A DNA stretch of 64,000 nt from an uncultured Candidatus Saccharibacteria bacterium (GTDB lineage Bacteria; Patescibacteriota; Doudnabacteria; UBA920): assembly GCA_964612745.1 (NCBI GenBank), contig CAZTCH010000001.1, positions 6,074 to 70,073 on the forward strand, written 5' to 3'. The number at the start of each line of letters is the position of its first letter. Position 1 is the first letter of the stretch. Below the pieces are notes generated by a model. It ran no database searches. It was not told the origin of the DNA and was given only the letters and a program-made list of their open reading frames with translations. The position numbers and the translations under genes are program-made. Of this stretch, positions 13,624-50,914 are shown piece by piece.

Positions 13624-13699
13624 GCGCCATCATCTAATGGTTAGGATAGGTGGTTCTCATCCACCAAATCGGGGTTCGATTCCCCGTGGCGCTACCAAT
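13624..13699 (+). tRNA. tRNA-Glu (anticodon CUC), CCA encoded
   Basis: Manual fold: acceptor GGCGCCA/TGGCGCT, D-arm, anticodon stem GGTGG/CCACC with loop TTCTCAT, T-arm CGGGG-TTCGATT-CCCCG, then discriminator A and CCA. Confidence 0.75.
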
Positions 13700-13731
13700 A
13701 AAAATACACCAGCATGCTGGTGTATTTTTAT
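13699..13731. terminator. perfect palindromic hairpin terminator after tRNA-Glu
   Basis: aaaaatacaccagcatgctggtgtattttt. Confidence 0.6.
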
Positions 13732-13732
13732 T

Positions 13733-13930
13733 GGTAGAGAAAAGACACGGGGAATCGAAAAGAGCGGTCCCGCCACCAGCGGGACTGCGCTGCGACTAGT
13801 TGGAGCAGTGCAGAGCGGCGGGGTCGCGTTAGGCGTCATGCGATGCGCCCGAAGGAAGCAGAGCATAGCCGTGGGTGACTGATTCCCCGCATGTTCGCCG
13901 TAGCTTTGGCGAAGGAGTGTGGCGCTACCA
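13733..13930 (+). ncRNA. candidate structured non-coding RNA (GC-rich; SRP-RNA-like GAAGGAAGCAG motif at 13851-13861; ends pair)
   Basis: Lies between two strong terminators. The 5' CGGGGAATC (13757-13765) pairs with the 3' GATTCCCCG (13881-13889), and GGTAG pairs with CTACC. Local hairpins include GTCCCGC..GCGGGAC and GGCG..CGCC. The 3' end duplicates the tRNA-Glu 3' end (gattccccg...tggcgctacca) with a 30-nt insert. ORF-track ORFs here (13637..13882 and others) are judged spurious. Confidence 0.3.
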
Positions 13931-13972
13931 AACTAAAACAACACCGAACAATTGTTCGGTGTTTTAGTTTGC
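13930..13972 (+). terminator. long hairpin terminator (aaactaaaacaacaccgaacaa/ttgttcggtgttttagttt) followed by T-rich tail
   Basis: About 19-bp stem with a 3-nt bulge. Confidence 0.6.
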
Positions 13973-14004: not shown

Positions 14005-14040
14005 GATGGGCACCATGTGCTGCTGTAGATGGTGCCCATC
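14005..14040. repeat. GATGGGCACCAT hairpin repeat family, copy A
   Basis: GATGGGCACCAT-gtgctgctgt-AGATGGTGCCCATC. Other copies at 22635-22679, 42947-43045 and 50862-50914. Confidence 0.8.
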
Positions 14041-15334: not shown

Positions 15335-15363
15335 TTGACTTGATGGGATAAAGACGGTATCAT
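15335..15363 (+). promoter_or_regulatory. sigma70-like promoter for tRNA cluster (-35 TTGACT, 17-nt spacer, -10 TATCAT)
   Basis: Consensus hexamers sit 12 nt upstream of the first tRNA. Confidence 0.5.
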
Positions 15364-15447: not shown

Positions 15448-15571
15448 TGAGTTGTAGCTCAATGGTAGAGCGCTGCTACTGAATAGGTAGGCTAAGACAC
15501 ATCAATTGAAGAAATTATGTGTATAGCGATTAAAAATCCAGAGGTTGTGGGTTCGAATCCCATCAGCTCAG
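15448..15571 (+). tRNA. interrupted tRNA-like gene (124 nt): U1-A72 acceptor, canonical D-arm and T-arm, ~50-nt insertion where the anticodon arm should be
   Basis: 5' TGAGTTG-TA-GCTC-AATGGTA-GAGC and 3' AGGTT-GTGGG-TTCGAAT-CCCAT-CAGCTCA-G pair perfectly as an acceptor stem. No 5-7-5 anticodon arm could be built, and the insert contains an ACACAT/ATGTGT hairpin. Confidence 0.4.
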
Positions 15572-15573
15572 TT

Positions 15574-15646
15574 GCTAGGGTAGCTCAACGGCAGAGCGTT
15601 CGCTTTTATAGCGGAAGGATTGCGGGTTCGAGTCCCGTCCCTAGCG
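15574..15646 (+). tRNA. tRNA with UUA anticodon (ochre-suppressor-like tRNA-Sup(TTA)), 73 nt
   Basis: Perfect 7-bp acceptor GCTAGGG/CCCTAGC, D-arm GCTC-AACGGCA-GAGC, anticodon stem TTCGC/GCGGA with loop TTTTATA (positions 34-36 = TTA), T-arm GCGGG-TTCGAGT-CCCGT, discriminator G. Confidence 0.55.
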
Positions 15647-15801
15647 TTGTCCACAGGAGGACAGATACATGTGCGGTTTGGTGCCGCTTAGTGCGCCAAA
15701 TATTTTGGATCTTAGATCCATTCCGCACTGGCGAGCTTCGTGCCCGCCAACAGAAACGAAAAACAACATGTAATGGTACATGTTGTTTTGTTTTTTCTAT
15801 T

Positions 15802-17020: not shown

Positions 17021-17200
17021 GCTACGAATCTACGAATACCTACAAATCTACGGATGCCTACGGATAAATGCAGATGCGTACTAATCTACGAATACCTACA
17101 AATCTACGGATGCCTACGGATAAATGCAGATGCGTACTAATCTACGAATACCTACAAATCTACGGATGCTGGCTGATCTACGAATTATTCGTGGGTATTC
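17021..17200. repeat. tandem repeat, ~56-nt unit x ~2.7 (ctacgaatacctacaaatctacggatgcctacggataaatgcagatgcgtactaat)
   Basis: Direct reiteration lies between the scpA stop and the small ORF. It ends in the hairpin CTACGAAT..ATTCGTAG. Confidence 0.85.
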
Positions 17201-17211
17201 GTAGCCCTGTC

Positions 17212-17958
17212 TTAATTCGTTGATTCGTTGTGTGTTGATTCGCTGCTCTCTTCGACGCGGCGGATGGTAATGTCTGTAAAGAGTGCGTCTTGTTCGACGC
17301 TGAATATGCGTTGCTTAATCAGTTCCAGCAGGGCCAAGAATGTCACAATAACTTCCGATTTATTTTTCGCTTGGGAAATAATACTGGAGAGCTTCGTCTC
17401 TATTTGTTTGGCAAGCAGTCCTTGCAAGTGCGTAATCTTTTCTTGAATAGAGATTGCTTCTTTAATGCGTGCCTTAGGCAATGCATCTAGCTCTTTTAAG
17501 TTAGTCAGTACTTTCATGACTGCATTTTGCAGTTCGCTTGTCGTGACGCTTTGGTCTGGAAAAAAACTGATGCGCTGCGAAAATACTAGAGTCCGAGTAA
17601 AGCTTTGTTGCTGCAGTGCGTCGAGCACTTTAAGGTGGCGCGCTACTTCGCGGAACTGTTTGTAGAGTAAGAGCTGGGTTTCCAGCGGGACTCCGGCGTC
17701 ATCTTCCTCTATGTCTACTTCTAACGTCGGCAAAATTGCTTTGGACTTTATGACGAGTAACTTTGCAGCAATTGCTAAGTAGTCAGACAACGAGGTTGGG
17801 TCTAGTTCTTCTAATTGTCGAACATACTGCAAAAACTGCTCGGTGACTTGCGCCAAAGAGACTTCGGTAATATTGAGCTTCTGGTTTTCTATTAACGACA
17901 ACAGCAAGTCCAGTGGTCCTTCGAACTGTTGTTTTTCTAATGTAATAACGTGTGACAT
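17212..17958 (-). CDS. scpA: segregation and condensation protein A (ScpA)
   Basis: N-terminal FEGPLDLLLSLIENQKLNITEVSLAQVTEQFL is the ScpA signature. Confidence 0.85.
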   Translation of the reverse strand: MSHVITLEKQQFEGPLDLLLSLIENQKLNITEVSLAQVTEQFLQYVRQLEELDPTSLSDYLAIAAKLLVIKSKAILPTLEVDIEEDDAGVPLETQLLLYKQFREVARHLKVLDALQQQSFTRTLVFSQRISFFPDQSVTTSELQNAVMKVLTNLKELDALPKARIKEAISIQEKITHLQGLLAKQIETKLSSIISQAKNKSEVIVTFLALLELIKQRIFSVEQDALFTDITIRRVEESSESTHNESTN

Positions 17959-20690: not shown

Positions 20691-21611
20691 CTACAGCTTT
20701 TTTGGGAACAGCACAGAGAGGAGCAAGGAAGCGGCGAGTGCTGCCATGATGATCGCAAAAGACACGATAGACGAAAGGTGTATGCCAAACATGACTGCCA
20801 GCATTTTTGCACCAATAAAAACTAGAATGAACGACAATCCTTTTTGGAGGTGGTGGAATTTGTGTACCACACCTTCTATTAAAAAGAATAGTGCACGCAG
20901 CCCCATGACCGCAAAAATGTTAGAAGTGAACACCAAGAACGGGTCTTGGGAAATAGAAAATGCTGCGGGGATAGAGTCGATGGCAAAAATTATGTCTGTG
21001 GTTTCTACCAAAATTACAATCATGAGCAGGAGTGTGGCGTAGAGTTTGCCATTTTCGCGCACAAAAAAGTGCCCGCCGTGGTGGTTGGTGGTAAAGCGTA
21101 GTGCTTTGTGCGCGAGTTTGTAGACTTTGCTATTACCAAAGTCGGCGTGTTCTTCTTGTTTGTCTTGCAGGAGCTTAAACCCTGTGTACACTAAAATTGC
21201 ACCAAAGATATACAGCACCCAGTGGAACTGACTCACAATGTAGCTACCCGTTAAAATAAACGCACCGCGGAATACAATAGCCCCCAAGATACCCCAAAAC
21301 AACACACGGTGGTGGTATTTCTCTTCTAGTTTAAAATAGCTAAACAAAAGCAGGATAACGAACAGGTTGTCTACCGAGAGCATTTTTTCGGTTACGTAGG
21401 CAGACAAAAACTGTGTGCCTGCTTCTGCGCCGAGCATGCGAAATACGAGCCCAGAAAAACCCAGCGCTATACAAATCCAAAATAGTGACTGGTAGGCAGC
21501 GGACTTCAGCGAAATTTTGTGCGCTTGGCGGTTAAAGTACCCAAGGTCGGCTACCAAAAATCCAACAATAATTGCGCCGAATATGGCAAAGAGTATTTGT
21601 TCTGGTGTCAT
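20691..21611 (-). CDS. TerC-family membrane protein (putative Mn2+ exporter)
   Basis: EKMLSVDNLFVILLLF and LIVETTDIIFAIDSIPA TerC motifs. Confidence 0.8.
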   Translation of the reverse strand: MTPEQILFAIFGAIIVGFLVADLGYFNRQAHKISLKSAAYQSLFWICIALGFSGLVFRMLGAEAGTQFLSAYVTEKMLSVDNLFVILLLFSYFKLEEKYHHRVLFWGILGAIVFRGAFILTGSYIVSQFHWVLYIFGAILVYTGFKLLQDKQEEHADFGNSKVYKLAHKALRFTTNHHGGHFFVRENGKLYATLLLMIVILVETTDIIFAIDSIPAAFSISQDPFLVFTSNIFAVMGLRALFFLIEGVVHKFHHLQKGLSFILVFIGAKMLAVMFGIHLSSIVSFAIIMAALAASLLLSVLFPKKL

Positions 21612-21639
21612 TTTTTAGAAGTAAAGAGTTCGATTTTTT

Positions 21640-21670
21640 CCGCTTTTCCAAAGAGGGGCTAGGGGAGTTT
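21640..21670. repeat. CCAAAGAGGGGCTAGGGGAGTTT hairpin-repeat family, copy a (imperfect)
   Basis: ccgcttttccaaagaggggctaggggagttt. Confidence 0.7.
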
Positions 21671-21684
21671 GGCTGACTTTTGAA

Positions 21685-22071
21685 TTAGTAGTGTTGTAAA
21701 GAAAAATAAAACCACACAAATGCAGCTGCTAAAGCTTGCAAAAGGATAACTATGAATACTCGTATTCGAGAAAGGTTAAATTTTGTCTGTAAGTACACCA
21801 TGCACAGTAACCAGAGGTAAATTACAGTCAATCCTATATGCAAAGCTCCAGAGAGTATGAGTGTTGTGAAGAATACAATATCTCGCGGTGCACCACAATG
21901 CACGCAGTCGGATGAGAGGTTTGGCGACAATAAAAAACTCAAGAGTAAGAAGCAAAGTGTAACTATGATTGAGAAGGAAAAAAATATTTTGAAGAGTCCA
22001 TTTACATTTTTGTACGGAGAATAAGTTGGGGCTTGGTTGGCAGGATTGTTGTTCACGATATTGTTTTGCAT
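21685..22071 (-). CDS. small membrane protein with CxxC (CVHCGAPRD), DUF2752-like
   Basis: 128 aa with 3-4 TM helices and a conserved Cys pair. Confidence 0.4.
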   Translation of the reverse strand: MQNNIVNNNPANQAPTYSPYKNVNGLFKIFFSFSIIVTLCFLLLSFLLSPNLSSDCVHCGAPRDIVFFTTLILSGALHIGLTVIYLWLLCMVYLQTKFNLSRIRVFIVILLQALAAAFVWFYFSLQHY

Positions 22072-22082
22072 AGTGTTTTGTT

Positions 22083-22116
22083 CCCCCTCTTTTCCAAAGA
22101 GGGGCTAGGGGAGTTT
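22083..22116. repeat. hairpin-repeat family, copy b (perfect stem)
   Basis: ccccctcttttccaaagaggggctaggggagttta. It overlaps the DUF559 stop codon. Confidence 0.75.
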
Positions 22117-22489
22117 ACTGTGGGCGTAACGAGTTAATGGTATTTACCAGTTTTTGGTGCACACCGTCATTATTTTCTAAGACATCATTATTCCAAAATC
22201 GTAACACATGTACGCCTATGTTTGCGAGGTAGTGGCTTCGTTCTTCATCGTTCGAAATTCCTGTGGGGGTGTTGTGTTGTCCACCATCTAGCTCTATGGC
22301 AAGTAGTATTTCTGGGCAGTAGAAATCGAGAATGTAATTTCCTACGCTGTACTGCCGAAAGAATTTCAGGTTTTGTATGTTGCGGTTACGAACCGTGTTC
22401 CACACTATTTTTTCCGCAGGTGTTTGGTTGTGCCGAAGTTGTCTTCTGAGTGGTTTGAGGCTCGGGTTGTTGTAGAGGGTGGTTTTCAC
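22115..22489 (-). CDS. DUF559 endonuclease-domain protein (Vsr/PD-(D/E)xK-like, COG2852)
   Basis: LRRQLRHNQTPAEKIVWNTVRNRNIQNLKFFRQYSVGNYILDFYCPEILLAIELDGGQH matches the DUF559 core pattern. Confidence 0.75.
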   Translation of the reverse strand: MKTTLYNNPSLKPLRRQLRHNQTPAEKIVWNTVRNRNIQNLKFFRQYSVGNYILDFYCPEILLAIELDGGQHNTPTGISNDEERSHYLANIGVHVLRFWNNDVLENNDGVHQKLVNTINSLRPQ

Positions 22490-22634: not shown

Positions 22635-22679
22635 GATGGGCACCATCTGTCCGCCGGCTGGCGACAGATGGTGCCCATC
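22635..22679. repeat. GATGGGCACCATCTG hairpin repeat family, copy B (17-nt arms)
   Basis: GATGGGCACCATCTGTC-cgccggctggcg-GACAGATGGTGCCCATC lies immediately 3' of the aspS stop. Confidence 0.85.
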
Positions 22680-22689
22680 AACGGAGGGG

Positions 22690-24462
22690 TTATGCCTTCT
22701 TTTCTCTTATGTCTATTTTAATGTGTAGGTCTGCGAGTTGTTTGGCGTCTACGGTACTTGGGGCAGACATCATGAGGTCTTCTGCGGAGCCATTCTTTGG
22801 GAACGCAATAACTTCGCGAATGTTTGGTTCGTCGCGTAGTACCATGAACAAACGGTCGAGTCCAAAGGCGCAACCACCGTGTGGTGGTGCACCAAACTCA
22901 AACGCACGAATCATGCCGCCGAAACGTTCGTCTACTGTGGCTTTGTCTATGCCCACAATTTCAAATGCTTTGTACATGACTTCTGGGTTGTAGTTGCGAA
23001 TAGCGCCACTGCAAATTTCGTACCCGTTGGCGACCATATCGTACTGGTCTGCTTTAATTTGGAGTGGGTCTTGTGAAGCGAGTGCTTCGAGCCCGCCTTG
23101 TGGCATGGAGAATGGGTTGTGGGAGAAATCCACTTTTTGTTCGGAGTCGCTCCATTCGTACATTGGGAAATTGGTAATCCACGCGAGTGCAACGACGTTT
23201 GGATCTTTGAGCCCAAAGTCTTCGCCAAGCTGGCTACGAAGTTTGCCCAATACTTTGTTTACAACGCTTCGTTCGTCTGTACCAAAGAAAATAATGTCAC
23301 CATCTACAGCTTCTGTGCGAGAGATAATTGCCGCTATTTCTGTTTCGTTTAGGAACTTGAGGATTGGTGATTTCTTTTCTCCATTTTCGAGGACAATGTA
23401 TGCCAAACCACCAGCGCCTTCTTTGCGCACGAGTTCGGTTAAGGTGTCTATTTGGCTGCGGGAAAGTTTTGCTCCACCTACACAACGAATGGCTTTTACA
23501 CATCCACCATTTTTAATGGCGTTCGCAAAGACACTAAACTGGGTTTCGCGTAGCTCTTCGGTTAGCTCTACCATTTCCATGTCAAAGCGTAAATCTGGTT
23601 TGTCGCTGCCGTACTTCTCCATTGCTTCTGCATAGGGAATACGAGGGACAGGTTTGTGTAATACTTTTTTGCCGGCAAAGTCTTCTACTAGGGAAATAAT
23701 GAGCGGCTCAATTTCGTTCCAAATGGTTTCGCCAGTTTCGGCGAAGCTCATTTCGAGGTCGAGTTGATAAAACTCTCCAGGGTGGCGGTCGGCGCGAGGG
23801 TCTTCGTCACGAAAACAAGGAGCGATTTGGTAGTAGCGAGGCAGTCCACCAACCATCAGTAACTGTTTGAATTGTTGTGGTGCTTGCGGGAGCGCATAGA
23901 ACTTTCCTGGGTGAATACGGCTTGGGACCAAGTAGTCACGAGCACCTTCGGGGGAGCTAGAGGTCAAAATTGGAGTGGTGACTTCTACAAAGTCGTGGTT
24001 GGTCATGTAGTTGCGGATGTGCATGTTGTACTGCGCACGGCTCTTGAGCATTTGCTGCATTTTTGCACGACGCAAATCCAAAAAGCGATATTGCAACCGC
24101 AGGTCTTCGTTTACGTTGACGTCGCTAAATACAGGGAATGGTAGTGGTTTGCTGGTGTTCAGGATTTGTAATTCTGAAACGACTAACTCCACCGTGCCAG
24201 TCGCAATGTTCGGGTTGACGAGTGCTGCGTCTCTTTGAGTTACGGTAGCGGTGGCACGCAACACAAATTCGTCGCGTACTTTGCTTGCGGTGGCAAATGC
24301 GTCTGCGGTTTCTGGGTGCACGGTAAGCTGCACAACACCGGTGTGATCGCGAAGGTCGATGAATATAAGGCCGCCGTGGTCACGGGTAGAAGAAGCCCAA
24401 CCAGAAACGGTGACTGTTTCTCCAACGTGCTGGAGAGTTTCGAGAGATAATGTTCGAGGCAT
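22690..24462 (-). CDS. aspS: aspartyl-tRNA synthetase
   Basis: 590 aa with class II aaRS motifs (FRDEDPRADRHPGEFYQLDLE, GGAPPHGGCAFGLDRL) and an N-terminal OB anticodon-binding domain. Confidence 0.9.
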   Translation of the reverse strand: MPRTLSLETLQHVGETVTVSGWASSTRDHGGLIFIDLRDHTGVVQLTVHPETADAFATASKVRDEFVLRATATVTQRDAALVNPNIATGTVELVVSELQILNTSKPLPFPVFSDVNVNEDLRLQYRFLDLRRAKMQQMLKSRAQYNMHIRNYMTNHDFVEVTTPILTSSSPEGARDYLVPSRIHPGKFYALPQAPQQFKQLLMVGGLPRYYQIAPCFRDEDPRADRHPGEFYQLDLEMSFAETGETIWNEIEPLIISLVEDFAGKKVLHKPVPRIPYAEAMEKYGSDKPDLRFDMEMVELTEELRETQFSVFANAIKNGGCVKAIRCVGGAKLSRSQIDTLTELVRKEGAGGLAYIVLENGEKKSPILKFLNETEIAAIISRTEAVDGDIIFFGTDERSVVNKVLGKLRSQLGEDFGLKDPNVVALAWITNFPMYEWSDSEQKVDFSHNPFSMPQGGLEALASQDPLQIKADQYDMVANGYEICSGAIRNYNPEVMYKAFEIVGIDKATVDERFGGMIRAFEFGAPPHGGCAFGLDRLFMVLRDEPNIREVIAFPKNGSAEDLMMSAPSTVDAKQLADLHIKIDIREKKA

Positions 24463-24624: not shown

Positions 24625-24800
24625 ATTTAAAAAAATGATTACGTTGTAAGGACGTTCAAATATGACGTGGTGCCACCTTACTTTGCTCGGCAGTATGCCA
24701 AGGACTTCATTGTCGCCCTTCGACATGCTCTCCTCGAGTCTGAGCGACCTCGGAGTCGATGACAGGGCTTTCAGCGATAACGGGCGTTCCCGGAAGGGTC
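24625..24800 (-). promoter_or_regulatory. probable T-box riboswitch leader of aspS (Asp specifier GAC)
   Basis: On the minus strand: Stem-I distal motif GGAGAGCA, specifier-context GGGCGACAAUG (GAC followed by A), T-box sequence AGUAAGGUGGCACCACG (UGGC bulge; C matches the Asp discriminator G73), then a hairpin and U-run (plus A-run 24628-24636). Lies about 160 nt upstream of the aspS ATG. Confidence 0.45.
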
Positions 24801-24982
24801 TACTAATCAGTGCGAAGTGCTTAGTTCTTAGTGCTTAGGAAGCTTTGCACTAAGTACTGAGTACTCAGAACTAATGTTCTGCCTTCAGCTCGGCTGTGTT
24901 TGCAGCGTCTGTGCTTGTAAAGTAATTATAGAACATTGGGCTTGGGGAGGCAATAGGAGGGGAGGGGTAGGAGGAGGGGCGT

Positions 24983-25081
24983 TAGACGGGCATCTTCTAA
25001 CGTACGAGTCTTTAGTTGTGTAATGCTGATAATGTTCCTGCCGAGCATATAACTACCATTTGTTAGAAGATGCCCATCTAA
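24983..25081. mobile_element. MITE-like element: 21-nt terminal inverted repeats GTTAGACGGGCATCTTCTAAC / GTTAGAAGATGCCCATCTAAC around a 58-nt core
   Basis: Arms are reverse complements with one mismatch. They share the TTAGATGGGCA seed with the GATGGGCACCATCTG family, and copy C (42947-43045) has the same arm/spacer geometry. Confidence 0.5.
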
Positions 25082-25495
25082 CTTTTTCGGTTGAATAAAA
25101 AAAGAAGACGGAGAAGCGCAGCGTGGGGCTGGGATCTCCGTCAGGGGGGCGTTTACTTTTGGGGCTTTTCGAAACCTGTGATTTGGGGGACCTTGTTTGT
25201 CCCCTTCGTTGCTCTTGTGCTCCAGCTGAGCCTCAAGGCTCCTTCGCTGTAGACGCAATCTGCGTGAGCTGGGATTGGTACAATATTCGGCAATCGATTG
25301 CCTACTCTATGATCGAACTTGAAAATGGCACATTTGCATTGAAGTGTGAAGATGTACATAAAAAATCCTCCTGAGATTCTTTTCGAAATTGCCGAACTGT
25401 TTTTCGGCAATGCATTGTACGATATTTTGCCCACATGTGTCAACTTACGTGTGACGGTGTGGTATACTATTTTTTAGAATTTTCTATAGAGAGAT

Positions 25496-42895: not shown

Positions 42896-42946
42896 AAGTC
42901 GAAAGTCGTCACGTCGTAATGTCTTCACGCCAGAAAAACGGTAGAG

Positions 42947-43045
42947 TTAGATGGGCACCATCTGACATGTAACTTTATATTTACTTATGTCGATGCGTCC
43001 TCAAACCGTATCTGTGGGCATAATGTCAGATGGTGCCCATCTAAC
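42947..43045. mobile_element. GATGGGCACCATCTG family, copy C: 22-nt inverted arms TTAGATGGGCACCATCTGACAT around 55-nt core (MITE-like)
   Basis: Arms are perfect reverse complements. The element lies between convergent genes. Confidence 0.6.
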
Positions 43046-48139: not shown

Positions 48140-49786
48140 ATGAACGTATTGAAGCAAAAAAACAACTGGTTAGGTTTACTTGTGTTAGCACAGCTTATTT
48201 TGGTGTACCTCTTGGCGATTGGTGTGGTGCCAGCATGGGTTGTTTTAGTGCAAGCAGTAGTGCTTGCGGGTTTAGTGTTGTCACTCCCTTCTACGTATGG
48301 TTTGCGCGTTTTTGTGGTGTCTGTGCCATTTTATTTGGTGTTACCACAGCAGTATTCCAACACATTGTCGACGTGGCGGCCACTGGTAGCGCTTTTGTTT
48401 GTGCGTGTTGTGGGAGAGTTTTTGTTTTACATCTATCGCAGTGGTAGAGCCGAACACAAAACCTTATCCAACTTTTTCACAATTGTGAAAAAGTTGGATA
48501 AGACTGTGCGTAGCGTAAGGGCGTGGGAGTGGACTGCGGTTGCTCTGTTTGTGTTTGGGTTGGTGTCGCTTCTCTGGGCACGATTTCCCGTGGAAGGAGC
48601 AAAGCAGTTAGTATTTTTACTGAACGCAGCGCTGCTCTACCCAATAGTCTTGTGGGTGTTACGGGATAGAAAACAGACTTTGCCGGTGTTGGTGTCTGGG
48701 GTTGTGTCTACTGGGGTAATAATTTTTATGGGGTTTGTGCAATACGCCATAACGCTGTTTACTGTTGCGTATTACTTCTGGCAGTTCTGGGCGTTGCAGG
48801 TAGCAAGTTTGTACTACGGCACGGAGCTTGCGCGCGTGTTGCAGTATTCCAACTCGTGGGTGACGGTGCAAGGTGAAGAAAAGATTTTGCGCATGTTTTC
48901 CGTAATGCCAAGCAGTCATGCGTTCGCTATGGTTGCGGTGCTCTTTTTGGCGTTTGTCTTACCACTGTTGTACCTGAACAGGCATAACGAAAAACTGACG
49001 GCCGTCGAAAATGCGTTACATTTTAGTGAGCTTAAAAAGCAATGGGTGTTGTGGGCTTCTGTGGTGTTGGCGTCGTTTGCGCTAATACTTTCGGGTACGC
49101 GCGGGGTGTGGCTGGGGATGTTACCTGTGTTAGTTGTTGCAGGGTTGGTGTACTACCGAAGTAAGTTGCGAATGTTGGTAGCGCCCATTTTTGCGTGCAT
49201 GCTTTTGGTGGTGGTATTGTTTGAGTTTTCTCCGATTACCGATAGGGTCACATCTTGGGTGCGCAGTGGGGGTTGGCGGTCGGGGACTTTGGAGCGGGTG
49301 GTGAGTATTGCCAACACAAACGAAACTTCGAACGCGGGGAGACTTGCTATGTGGAAGCGTGTGGGTGCGCAAGTACTGCACAATCCGTTTGGGGTGGGCT
49401 ATGGCAACTTTGTGGCTACGCTCGAACCGGACGCAACTACTGCAGACTTTGAAGCTATTGCCAATCAAGACAACGATGCATACAACTTACCACAGCGGTA
49501 TGTGACTGCGCATAGTTTGTACTTGCAACTACTGGCAGAACTTGGAGTAGTTGGGTTGGTATTGTTTGGGTTGTTTTGGATTTTTCTGCTATGGGACATG
49601 GGGAAAGCAGTTGTGGCGAGTAGTGAGTTGAATTTGAACAACATTTTTTTGGTTACCACCTTTTGTGTGTTTCTGTGGTTTTTGGCATATAGCGTATTTG
49701 ACCTGACATGGTTGAATGATAAGATACTTCTATATACGTTTTTGTTGTTCGCCCTTATGCGCACACTCAAACGCCCGCAGATGTAG
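48140..49786 (+). CDS. O-antigen ligase/polymerase-like (Wzy_C domain) membrane protein
   Basis: Polytopic. Contains the conserved SGTRGVWLG and AHSLYLQLLAELGVVG (H-x-x-L...E-x-G) Wzy_C-type motifs. Confidence 0.65.
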   Translation: MNVLKQKNNWLGLLVLAQLILVYLLAIGVVPAWVVLVQAVVLAGLVLSLPSTYGLRVFVVSVPFYLVLPQQYSNTLSTWRPLVALLFVRVVGEFLFYIYRSGRAEHKTLSNFFTIVKKLDKTVRSVRAWEWTAVALFVFGLVSLLWARFPVEGAKQLVFLLNAALLYPIVLWVLRDRKQTLPVLVSGVVSTGVIIFMGFVQYAITLFTVAYYFWQFWALQVASLYYGTELARVLQYSNSWVTVQGEEKILRMFSVMPSSHAFAMVAVLFLAFVLPLLYLNRHNEKLTAVENALHFSELKKQWVLWASVVLASFALILSGTRGVWLGMLPVLVVAGLVYYRSKLRMLVAPIFACMLLVVVLFEFSPITDRVTSWVRSGGWRSGTLERVVSIANTNETSNAGRLAMWKRVGAQVLHNPFGVGYGNFVATLEPDATTADFEAIANQDNDAYNLPQRYVTAHSLYLQLLAELGVVGLVLFGLFWIFLLWDMGKAVVASSELNLNNIFLVTTFCVFLWFLAYSVFDLTWLNDKILLYTFLLFALMRTLKRPQM

Positions 49787-50861: not shown

Positions 50862-50914
50862 GATGGGCACCATCTGCATGCTCCGCCTGTCGGCGGATGC
50901 AGATGGTGCCCATC
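50862..50914. repeat. GATGGGCACCATCTG hairpin repeat family, copy D
   Basis: GATGGGCACCATCTGCAT-gctccgcctgtcggcgg-ATGCAGATGGTGCCCATC lies between two GT2 genes. It accounts for the N-terminal extension of ORF-track ORF 50859. Confidence 0.85.

Follow-up and report, generated by a model that had tools for sequence, protein, structure and literature searches.

Hairpin repeats of probable REP/REPIN type in a Doudnabacteria chromosome segment and a RAYT-like partner gene in related Patescibacteria

The window, i.e., the whole 64-kb stretch of DNA that was analysed here, is an ordinary bacterial chromosome segment of ~46% GC, with genes such as aspS, a class A penicillin-binding protein gene, GT2 glycosyltransferase genes and an S41 peptidase gene. 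Its aspartyl-tRNA synthetase (AspRS) shares 87% identity with the enzyme of a Candidatus Doudnabacteria metagenome-assembled genome (MAG), and the other named matches are to Doudnabacteria or Patescibacteria. Dispersed between these genes are five hairpin-forming inverted repeats, four with GATGGGCACCATCTG arms and one with the variant GATGGGCATCTTC, which are the subject of this study. We consider it very probable that these GATGGGCACCATC hairpins are repetitive extragenic palindromic (REP) singlets and REPIN-like doublets (two inverted REP units forming one hairpin), belonging to a Patescibacteria family that is mobilised in trans by a REP-associated tyrosine transposase (RAYT).

Five hairpin elements between the genes of the window

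A search of the window for the arm motif GATGGGCACCATCTG, with up to two mismatches allowed, gave eight matches where 0.04 were expected, and none of the 100 shuffled controls reached eight. These matches form four inverted pairs (14005/14026, 22635/22665, 42950/43027 and 50862/50900). With an inverted-repeat finder, arms of 17 nt (22635-22651/22663-22679, 100% complementary), 23 nt (42946-42968/43023-43045, 100% complementary, with 54 nt between them) and 24 nt (50862-50885/50891-50914, 92% complementary) were delimited, together with a variant pair of 21-nt arms (24981-25001/25062-25082, 95%, 60 nt between them). Searches of the window with 7-mers of the core showed no further convincing copies, and no Rfam family was found for the hairpins at gathering or E-value thresholds. 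The positions of the elements and the genes around them are displayed in Table 1; in addition, the 22635 hairpin is identical in an independent Logan assembly contig (L120; contigs and relatives are cited by L number).

The family is built from a short palindrome whose centre is asymmetric, (G)ATGG-GCA-CCAT(C). This unit is found singly or, more often, as inverted doublets; a short intervening segment results in the three short hairpins, and a segment of 54-60 nt in the two ~100-nt elements. Each arm is such a small palindrome (GATGG-GCA-CCATC), and the corresponding pattern GATGGNNNCCATC has seven matches in the window against 0.02 expected, while the arm of the element at 42946-43045 is a 21-nt near-palindrome, GTtAGATGG-GCA-CCATCTgAC. 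When folded as single-stranded DNA, all five elements greatly exceed shuffled sequences in stability, with folding free energies (dG) of -14.6 to -29.6 kcal/mol and z-scores of -5.3 to -8.9. Single arms also fold alone, with -4.1 and -3.8 kcal/mol for 42946-43045 and -1.9 for the left arm of 24981-25082, and singlets in the relatives L190 and L145 fold at -12 to -14 kcal/mol. The predicted loops of the three short hairpins have ~4 nt, the segment between the arms being itself largely paired.

An earlier note on this DNA had claimed a dispersed hairpin family with at least five copies in 64 kb, and the eight arm matches confirm it, with some corrections of detail. The arms are near-identical, as the note had stated, with the 14005 copy carrying one mismatch in each arm; the related variant that it placed at 24983-25081 does exist, with the coordinates 24981-25082 and with C, not T, in its left arm GTTAGACGGGCATCTTCTAAC; and in place of two short hairpins with 10-17-nt loops there are three with the small loops given above. 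All window copies are intergenic, as claimed, and the inflation of open reading frame (ORF) predictions was borne out as well, since the 50862 hairpin creates a spurious N-terminal extension of ORF 50859.

The family in other genomes and its RAYT-like gene

Metagenome contigs of the Joint Genome Institute (JGI) were scanned for the exact pattern GATGGGCACCAT-N8-38-ATGGTGCCCATC, by which only doublets with 8-38 nt between the cores are sampled, so that ascertainment accounts in part for the apparently invariant core and for the scarcity of long doublets in this set. The paired-core pattern was present in 65 contigs, and megablast clustering gave 55 clusters including the window, i.e., 54 distinct contexts elsewhere. 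Together with the copies in MAGs of relatives, this shows that the family is not restricted to the window; as the flanks of the window copies are mutually unrelated, the copies are also not parts of one duplicated segment. Neither of the two outcomes by which the earlier note would have been refuted was therefore observed. No hairpin matches to the paired-core pattern were found in viral contigs, and the bare 15-mer gave, among the matches listed for genome contigs, single chance matches in unrelated taxa.

Among the 74 metagenome hairpins there are 45 different inner segments, with the 12-13-nt core fixed, as the search design requires. Pairing usually continues inward from the core (for example, CTGGCGGCCGCCAG, CACTCCCAATATTGGGAGTG, CCAACACGCGACGTGTTGG and TGGGAATTTTGAATTCCCA), most often over seven to eight consecutive pairs, and outward over at least two pairs in 56 of the 74 hairpins. 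The 2-9 nt outside the core are usually complementary (such as cggacaGATGG...CCATCtgtccg or ccttGATGG...CCATCaagg), and the bases just outside it are TT/AA, CA/TG, AA/TT or AC/GT, according to the subfamily. Pairing is kept while the sequence changes; therefore, since both the inner and the outer segments are variable and yet paired, the conserved feature is a hairpin with a fixed box in its stem. Moreover, one identical 38-nt hairpin lies at 11 different loci (10 from the Ga0182027 metagenome and one from Ga0181520), which is a signature of amplification.

The hairpins lie closer to gene 3' ends (median of 38 nt) than to 5' ends (126 nt), as far as crude gene calls tell, and several copies per 16-22 kb are found in the relatives L197 and L190. 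Contigs with the conserved core range from 35 to 70% GC. In five of them (L127, L141, L152, L177 and L185; 54-70% GC), the exact 24-nt core pattern is found at a GC content well above the 35-50% of the others, and with these high-GC contigs the family may extend beyond typical Patescibacteria. Outside the window, the hairpin also lies in frame inside real genes (Table 1), where it keeps the frame open and contributes peptides of the DGHH...DGAH type; in DHFR, RNase HII and RrnaAD, the match to the Pfam family runs across the inserted segment.

The presence of the hairpins differs between close relatives. For the spacer between the two GT2 genes, relatives were ranked by the identity of the upstream GT2 protein: the window spacer of 108 nt holds the doublet, L199 (96% identical) has a 68-nt spacer with only the right-hand box ttgtaGATGGTGCCCATCgtgcag, and L200 (77%) and L201 (74%), whose GT2 genes abut or even overlap, lack any element. 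Judging from the doublet in the window vs. the singlet in L199, singlets appear to be doublets that have decayed. Neither L187 nor L190, relatives with 87% and 83% identical AspRS, respectively, has the hairpin after aspS. The gap between aspS and the Na/Ca-exchanger gene measures ~2 kb in the window (20691-22489) and only 48 nt in L187 (6058-6105; AspRS 87%); the additional ~2 kb, which lies beside the 22635 hairpin and carries two ORFs besides a DUF559 (Vsr-like nuclease) gene, may have been inserted as a block. For the 24981 element, no clean "empty site" was obtained, since alignments with the orthologous spacers of L187, L188 and L190 are poor there. The variant GATGGGCATCTTC box is seen as a short hairpin in L187 (10426-10463), L190 carries two doublets whose feet read AATGG or CATGG, along with a perfect singlet, and L200 has a ATGGGCACCATT doublet.

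In several contigs, two hairpins ~700 nt apart bracket one gene (Table 1). Such a layout is known as a REPtron, defined as a RAYT gene bracketed by a repeat that is dispersed elsewhere in the genome (PMC6006769, PMC5581495), and in L197 two more doublets lie within 3 kb of the RAYT-like gene. The product of the bracketed gene has ~209 aa and is of the HUH/Y1 type, with matches to Pfam Y1_Tnp (PF01797) at 37-42 bits (cut-off 23), and both its NHFH (HUH motif) and its Y136-IHQ-NP (YIHQNP) motifs are invariant or nearly so in 42 homologues. The sole NCBIfam match is "REP-associated tyrosine transposase", with E down to 6e-16. The best PDB match of the sequence profile is E. coli TnpA-REP (4ER8, a RAYT bound to a REP hairpin), a marginal match with E 0.011, and phmmer with a single RAYT against the PDB sequences found nothing. 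An AlphaFold model of the protein (predicted local distance difference test, pLDDT, 88.8) has 4ER8_A as its top Foldseek match, with E 5.6e-7 and a target-normalised template-modelling (TM) score of 0.69, while the TnpA proteins of IS608 and ISDra2 trail at E ~4e-4.

At E <= 1e-5 the RAYT-like family comprises at least 7,986 matching protein clusters. Among the best 120 matches, every taxon-named one belongs to a group of the Patescibacteria (Taylor-, Magasanik-, Doudna- and Yanofskybacteria, Paceibacterota, or the generic "Patescibacteria group"), and the only other names are "bacterium", "putative transposase" and "REP element-mobilizing transposase RayT", a label that JGI assigns automatically. 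Judged by the named matches, the repeat family is specific to Patescibacteria (the Candidate Phyla Radiation, CPR). The DUF559 (Vsr-like) gene was also considered as a partner enzyme and rejected, as only one other locus has DUF559 anywhere on the contig.

The repeat core co-varies with the enzyme. More distant RAYT relatives are accompanied by the cores AATGGGCATCTTT, GATGGGAGTCTTC and AGGGCACCCT: the homologue in L192 (Yanofskybacteria) is flanked by AATGGGCATCTTTGCA hairpins, that in L186 (Doudnabacteria) by GATGGGAGTCTTC hairpins and that in L195 by AGGGCACCCTCTTGC hairpins. A RAYT that is only 34% identical (L143, 79-705, minus strand) is flanked by inverted TTGGGTGCTAAACACCCAA doublets, and a copy of the TTGGGTGCTAAACACCCAA unit also lies inside its own coding sequence, which has been reported for TnpA-REP subclass 2.4 (PMC6006769). 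The RAYT of L123, on the other hand, is only 46-50% identical to those of L130 and L124, and yet it has the identical GATGGGCACCAT core. The gene order DUF4012, small ORF, RAYT, lepA, divIC, ftsH is common to L192 and L197, and lepA is directly downstream of the RAYT in L123 and L145 too. These conserved neighbours, together with the lack of RAYT relatives among IMG/VR viral contigs, point to a RAYT that is itself vertically inherited while the hairpins multiply.

Table 1. Hairpin elements of the window, hairpins lying in frame inside genes of other contigs (the coordinates given are those of the genes), and hairpin-bracketed RAYT-like genes (REPtron layout).
Feature	Locus	Coordinates	Strand	Sequence or structure	dG (kcal/mol), z	Setting
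Short doublet hairpin, most degenerate copy	Window	14005..14040		GATGGGCACCATgTG ... tAGATGGTGCCCATC	-14.6, -5.3	3' of tRNA-Glu and its terminator-like palindromes; 53 nt before the ATG (14094) of a P-loop kinase-like gene
Short doublet hairpin	Window	22635..22679		Perfect 17-nt arms	-25.1, -8.1	Starts 10 nt past the stop of aspS (22690-24462, minus strand); 145 nt upstream of the DUF559 gene
Long doublet, variant subfamily	Window	24981..25082		GTTAGACGGGCATCTTCTAAC, 60-nt unrelated spacer, GTTAGAAGATGCCCATCTAAC	-19.5, -5.3	Between divergent genes, upstream of the T-box-like leader of aspS
Long REPIN-like doublet	Window	42946..43045		Perfect 23-nt arms GTTAGATGGGCACCATCTGACAT, 54-nt unrelated spacer	-29.6, -8.9	Between convergent genes
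Short doublet hairpin	Window	50862..50914			-29.3, -8.0	Begins 6 nt past the stop of one GT2 glycosyltransferase gene; ends 49 nt short of the ATG (50964) of the next co-oriented GT2 gene
In-frame hairpin	L164	689-1237				folA, dihydrofolate reductase (DHFR)
In-frame hairpin	L177	917-1651	minus			rnhB, RNase HII
In-frame hairpin	L140	1406-2191				ksgA/RrnaAD
In-frame hairpin	L139	1024-1890	minus			PrmC-like methyltransferase
In-frame hairpin	L133	5788-6630				M24 peptidase
REPtron layout	L123	154-190, 211-840, 849-890		Hairpin, gene, hairpin		
REPtron layout	L130	5627-5670, 5687-6319, 6352-6395		Hairpin, gene, hairpin; two hairpins identical		
REPtron layout	L124/L144			Same hairpin-gene-hairpin arrangement as L123 and L130		
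REPtron layout	L145			Doublet upstream; singlet hairpin downstream, tacactatacGATGG-TGC-CCATCgtatagtgta		
REPtron layout	L197	5898-5935, 5955-6584, 6589-6623		Hairpin, gene, hairpin		Taylorbacteria MAG

Origin of the hairpins

Mobilisation of the hairpins by a RAYT may be pictured by analogy with E. coli TnpA-REP and the IS200/IS605 TnpA proteins, the mechanistic model systems treated in PMC3479197 and PMC8266576. On single-stranded DNA, the folded hairpin would be bound by the Y1 enzyme, which would then cut the adjacent DNA and join the hairpin to another site. Copies would thereby spread to intergenic spacers, for the most part immediately 3' of genes, and occasionally land in frame inside a gene. 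Catalysis would be by the RAYT, presumably through a single-stranded DNA intermediate as in these models, and the enzyme acting on the window copies would be encoded elsewhere in this genome. Inserted copies may have an effect on the host, e.g., stabilisation of mRNA 3' ends or termination. The central GCA is a triloop of the GNA type, and such triloops give unusually stable DNA mini-hairpins. To speculate, the GATGG-GCA-CCATC strand might be the form that is recognised.

Several results weigh against a REP/RAYT origin of the hairpins. The four main window copies have only their 15-nt arms in common, and their middles all differ, though they are self-complementary, which is unlike a young REPIN population of near-identical copies; the divergent copies may be old, diverged subfamilies, or else doublets might form when a singlet is copied, in a fold-back manner, together with the sequence next to it. 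The tetranucleotide GT[AG]G (or CGTC) at the 5' foot of the hairpin, which is the canonical hallmark of REPs, is absent, the flanks of the window hairpins being cgac, atac, GTTA and agtg. The search for a cognate RAYT that the earlier note had suggested was successful in related Patescibacteria, but no RAYT homologue was found in the 64-kb window (tblastn E > 7). L186, the sole Doudnabacteria RAYT locus that was retrieved, has a core different from that of the window family, and the homologue of L193/L194 has no obvious flanking hairpin. Finally, the RAYT-like proteins miss the cut-off of the NF047646 equivalog, with 28-59 bits against the 80 required.

Of the other explanations, the one that survives best, and which we still regard as improbable, is that the RAYT-like gene and its two hairpins make up an autonomous insertion sequence of the IS200/IS605 type, with the solo hairpins as its left-over ends. 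The protein does belong to Pfam Y1_Tnp, an IS200-like family, the TnpA proteins of IS608 and ISDra2 are significant fold matches, and hairpins are present at both gene ends. However, the same neighbours (DUF4012 on one side; lepA, divIC and ftsH on the other) are found in different candidate phyla, which is unexpected for a gene that hops, and the solo hairpins far exceed the genes, with 74 hairpins vs. 5 RAYT loci in the scanned contigs and 5 vs. 0 in the window. In addition, the tyrosine motif is Y..NP, which the motif table of PMC6006769 assigns to class 2 (TnpA-REP), and not the Y...Q of class 1 (IS200 transposases), the best structural match is the RAYT 4ER8, and the flanking hairpins can be identical, as in L130, whereas the left end of an IS200/IS605 element differs from its right end.

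It seems rather more improbable that GATGG-N3-CCATC is the palindromic site of a dimeric DNA-binding protein (a regulator, a nucleoid or partition protein, or a restriction-like enzyme), with the hairpins as paired operators. The two-fold symmetry of each arm, a 13-bp palindrome, and the conservation of the core over such a wide range of GC content would fit such a site. Against this, the sites are mostly just past stop codons, between convergent genes or inside coding sequences, and not at promoters; the pairing reaches well past the box, with variable sequence; and their presence differs between close relatives, while the physical link is to a gene of transposase type.

The earlier note had labelled the family REP/MITE-like (MITE, miniature inverted-repeat transposable element). 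Of this label, the REP half is upheld by the RAYT-like gene flanked by hairpins in relatives, whereas we give very little credence to the MITE half, by which the ~100-nt elements would be MITEs derived from an insertion sequence of the DDE type and the short hairpins internally deleted forms. The geometry described in the note (terminal inverted repeats of 21-22 nt around an unrelated core of 55-58 nt) was indeed found, with perfect repeats of 21-23 nt and cores of 54-60 nt, and it is the feature that speaks for a MITE. However, no direct repeats (target-site duplication) are present at the borders of 42946-43045 or 24981-25082, the cores of these two long elements are mutually unrelated (local alignment score of 8, shuffle mean of 7.5), the arms are themselves palindromic, and the box also occurs as singlet hairpins. 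Furthermore, neither the window nor the loci showed a DDE transposase with such ends, and the gene that the hairpins do flank is of the Y1/HUH type. The two long elements are better accommodated as REP units paired in inverted orientation, like REPINs, with unrelated spacers between them.

Least credible of all is a local origin of the hairpins, at each gene end, as ordinary intrinsic terminators or as stabilisers of mRNA. In its favour, three of the five elements lie within about 10-130 nt of a stop codon, and the 22635 copy (minus strand) has a T-rich tail and was a match in the terminator scan. However, a T tract is missing from the other four, other terminator-like sites in the window are unrelated in sequence, and an identical sequence of 13-15 nt in unrelated loci and 54 other contexts cannot arise independently. 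A secondary role of inserted copies as terminators or 3'-end stabilisers is possible.

Beyond the REP/RAYT origin as such, we put forward more tentatively, and with less than even confidence, that the partnership of RAYT and REP is an old one, passed on vertically in much of the Patescibacteria, the ~11-nt core ATGGGCACCAT having stayed constant while the enzymes diverged to <50% identity, with the RAYT in a fixed housekeeping neighbourhood beside lepA and the repeats present in ultra-small genomes, even in frame in the essential genes folA, rnhB and ksgA. If this is true, it would imply that a host-level function, and not pure selfishness, keeps the system under strong genome reduction.

Other features of the window were observed alongside the hairpins. 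A tRNA cluster after tRNA-Trp(CCA), with a promoter-like site at 15335-15363, includes a 124-nt tRNA-like sequence with an insertion of ~50 nt (15448-15571; Rfam tRNA, 49 bits; no ARAGORN call) and a tRNA with the anticodon UUA (15573-15647), which ARAGORN denotes as "tRNA-Stop" (it would read UAA) and which has a pyrimidine at position 37. Upstream of aspS lies the T-box-like leader (24645-24877, minus strand), with 34.9 bits and E 8e-5 (the Rfam gathering score is 93), whose AGTAAGGTGGCACCACG box is conserved in the three relatives L187, L188 and L190. An array of 2.6 copies of a 56-nt unit (17022-17204, 98% match), composed of the octamers CTACGAAT, CTACAAAT and CTACGGAT and with an inverted copy at 17187-17204, lies immediately downstream of scpA (17212-17958, minus strand) and resembles a series of iterons or binding sites. 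Three long palindromes, perfect or nearly so, bear no sequence relation to the REP family (13692-13737, 13940-13963 and 48454-48511); the latter two have T-rich tails and were matched in the terminator scan, and thus the terminator-like sites of the window look unlike the REP hairpins.

Comparison with known systems

REP/REPIN-RAYT systems have been studied almost entirely in Proteobacteria, while the literature describes the genomes of Patescibacteria as ultra-small and reduced. Among the papers searched, none was found that connects RAYTs, REPINs or "repetitive extragenic" sequences to Patescibacteria or CPR, or that has the core sequence in a relevant context, and Parcubacteria, Patescibacteria and Microgenomates are not mentioned in the text of PMC6006769. 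Since, according to the survey of complete genomes in that paper, Y1-transposase genes are preferentially found in large genomes (PMC6006769), a widespread REP/RAYT family in reduced Patescibacteria deserves attention. A core that is common to enzymes ~50% identical could serve as a new test bed for the question of what RAYTs and REPs are for. There are also practical consequences for the annotation of CPR MAGs, as the hairpins inflate ORF calls (as in ORF 50859) and add peptides of the DGHH...DGAH type to real proteins, and they may break or mis-join assemblies.

The elements of the window resemble the E. coli REP and bacterial interspersed mosaic elements (BIMEs) with TnpA-REP (RayT/YafM) in being short extragenic palindromes, often just past genes, and the RAYT-like gene resembles that of E. 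coli in being a single flanked HUH/Y1 gene (REPtron) and in its fold and Y..NP motif. Unlike those of E. coli, the hairpins have neither a GT[AG]G head at their foot nor a conserved bulge; conservation falls on a box of 12-13 nt within the stem, which is itself palindromic. The Patescibacteria proteins are ~15% identical to 4ER8 and ~45 aa longer at the C-terminus, and the host is a Patescibacteria genome, presumably small, compared with a proteobacterium of the E. coli type with 4-6 Mb.

With the REPINs of Pseudomonas fluorescens SBW25 and relatives (Bertels & Rainey 2011, PMC3116915; PMC5581495) the family has in common that two inverted REP units form one long hairpin and that singlets resemble doublets in decay, and with RAYTs of the SBW25 type an apparent vertical inheritance, a conserved neighbourhood and a flanking repeat that is abundant elsewhere. 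In contrast to the fixed spacer of the Pseudomonas REPINs, the distance between units ranges here from ~6 to 62 nt with unrelated spacer sequences, the window copies have only the arms in common, and the core is shared by RAYTs that are 46-50% identical. REP sequences are usually specific to a genus or species.

Compared by tabulated motifs only, the signature found here (NHFH / [FW]Q / YIH[QLT]NP / SS) resembles those of TnpA-Y1 subclasses 2.6 and 2.1 (PMC6006769). Subclass 2.6, with NH[LIV]H, WQ and YIH[QN]NP, is mostly from Bacteroidetes and has "atypical secondary structures" (PMC6006769, Quentin et al. 2018), and subclass 2.1, with NH[YF]H, FQ and Y[IV]HLNP, is without an associated REP (PMC6006769); that atypical, non-GTAG secondary structures flank some TnpA-Y1 subclasses was noted earlier (PMC6006769).

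The HUH/Y1 fold and the recognition of subterminal DNA hairpins are shared with IS200/IS605 elements such as IS608 and ISDra2, from which the present system differs in its syntenic gene, in flanking hairpins that can be identical, in the Y..NP motif and in the great excess of solo hairpins. What is known, then, are REP/REPIN-RAYT systems as such, and what is new is the lineage and the sequence family, with an atypical repeat that has no GTAG head; its unusual traits are a deeply conserved core of nested palindromes and its residence in a lineage known for genome reduction.

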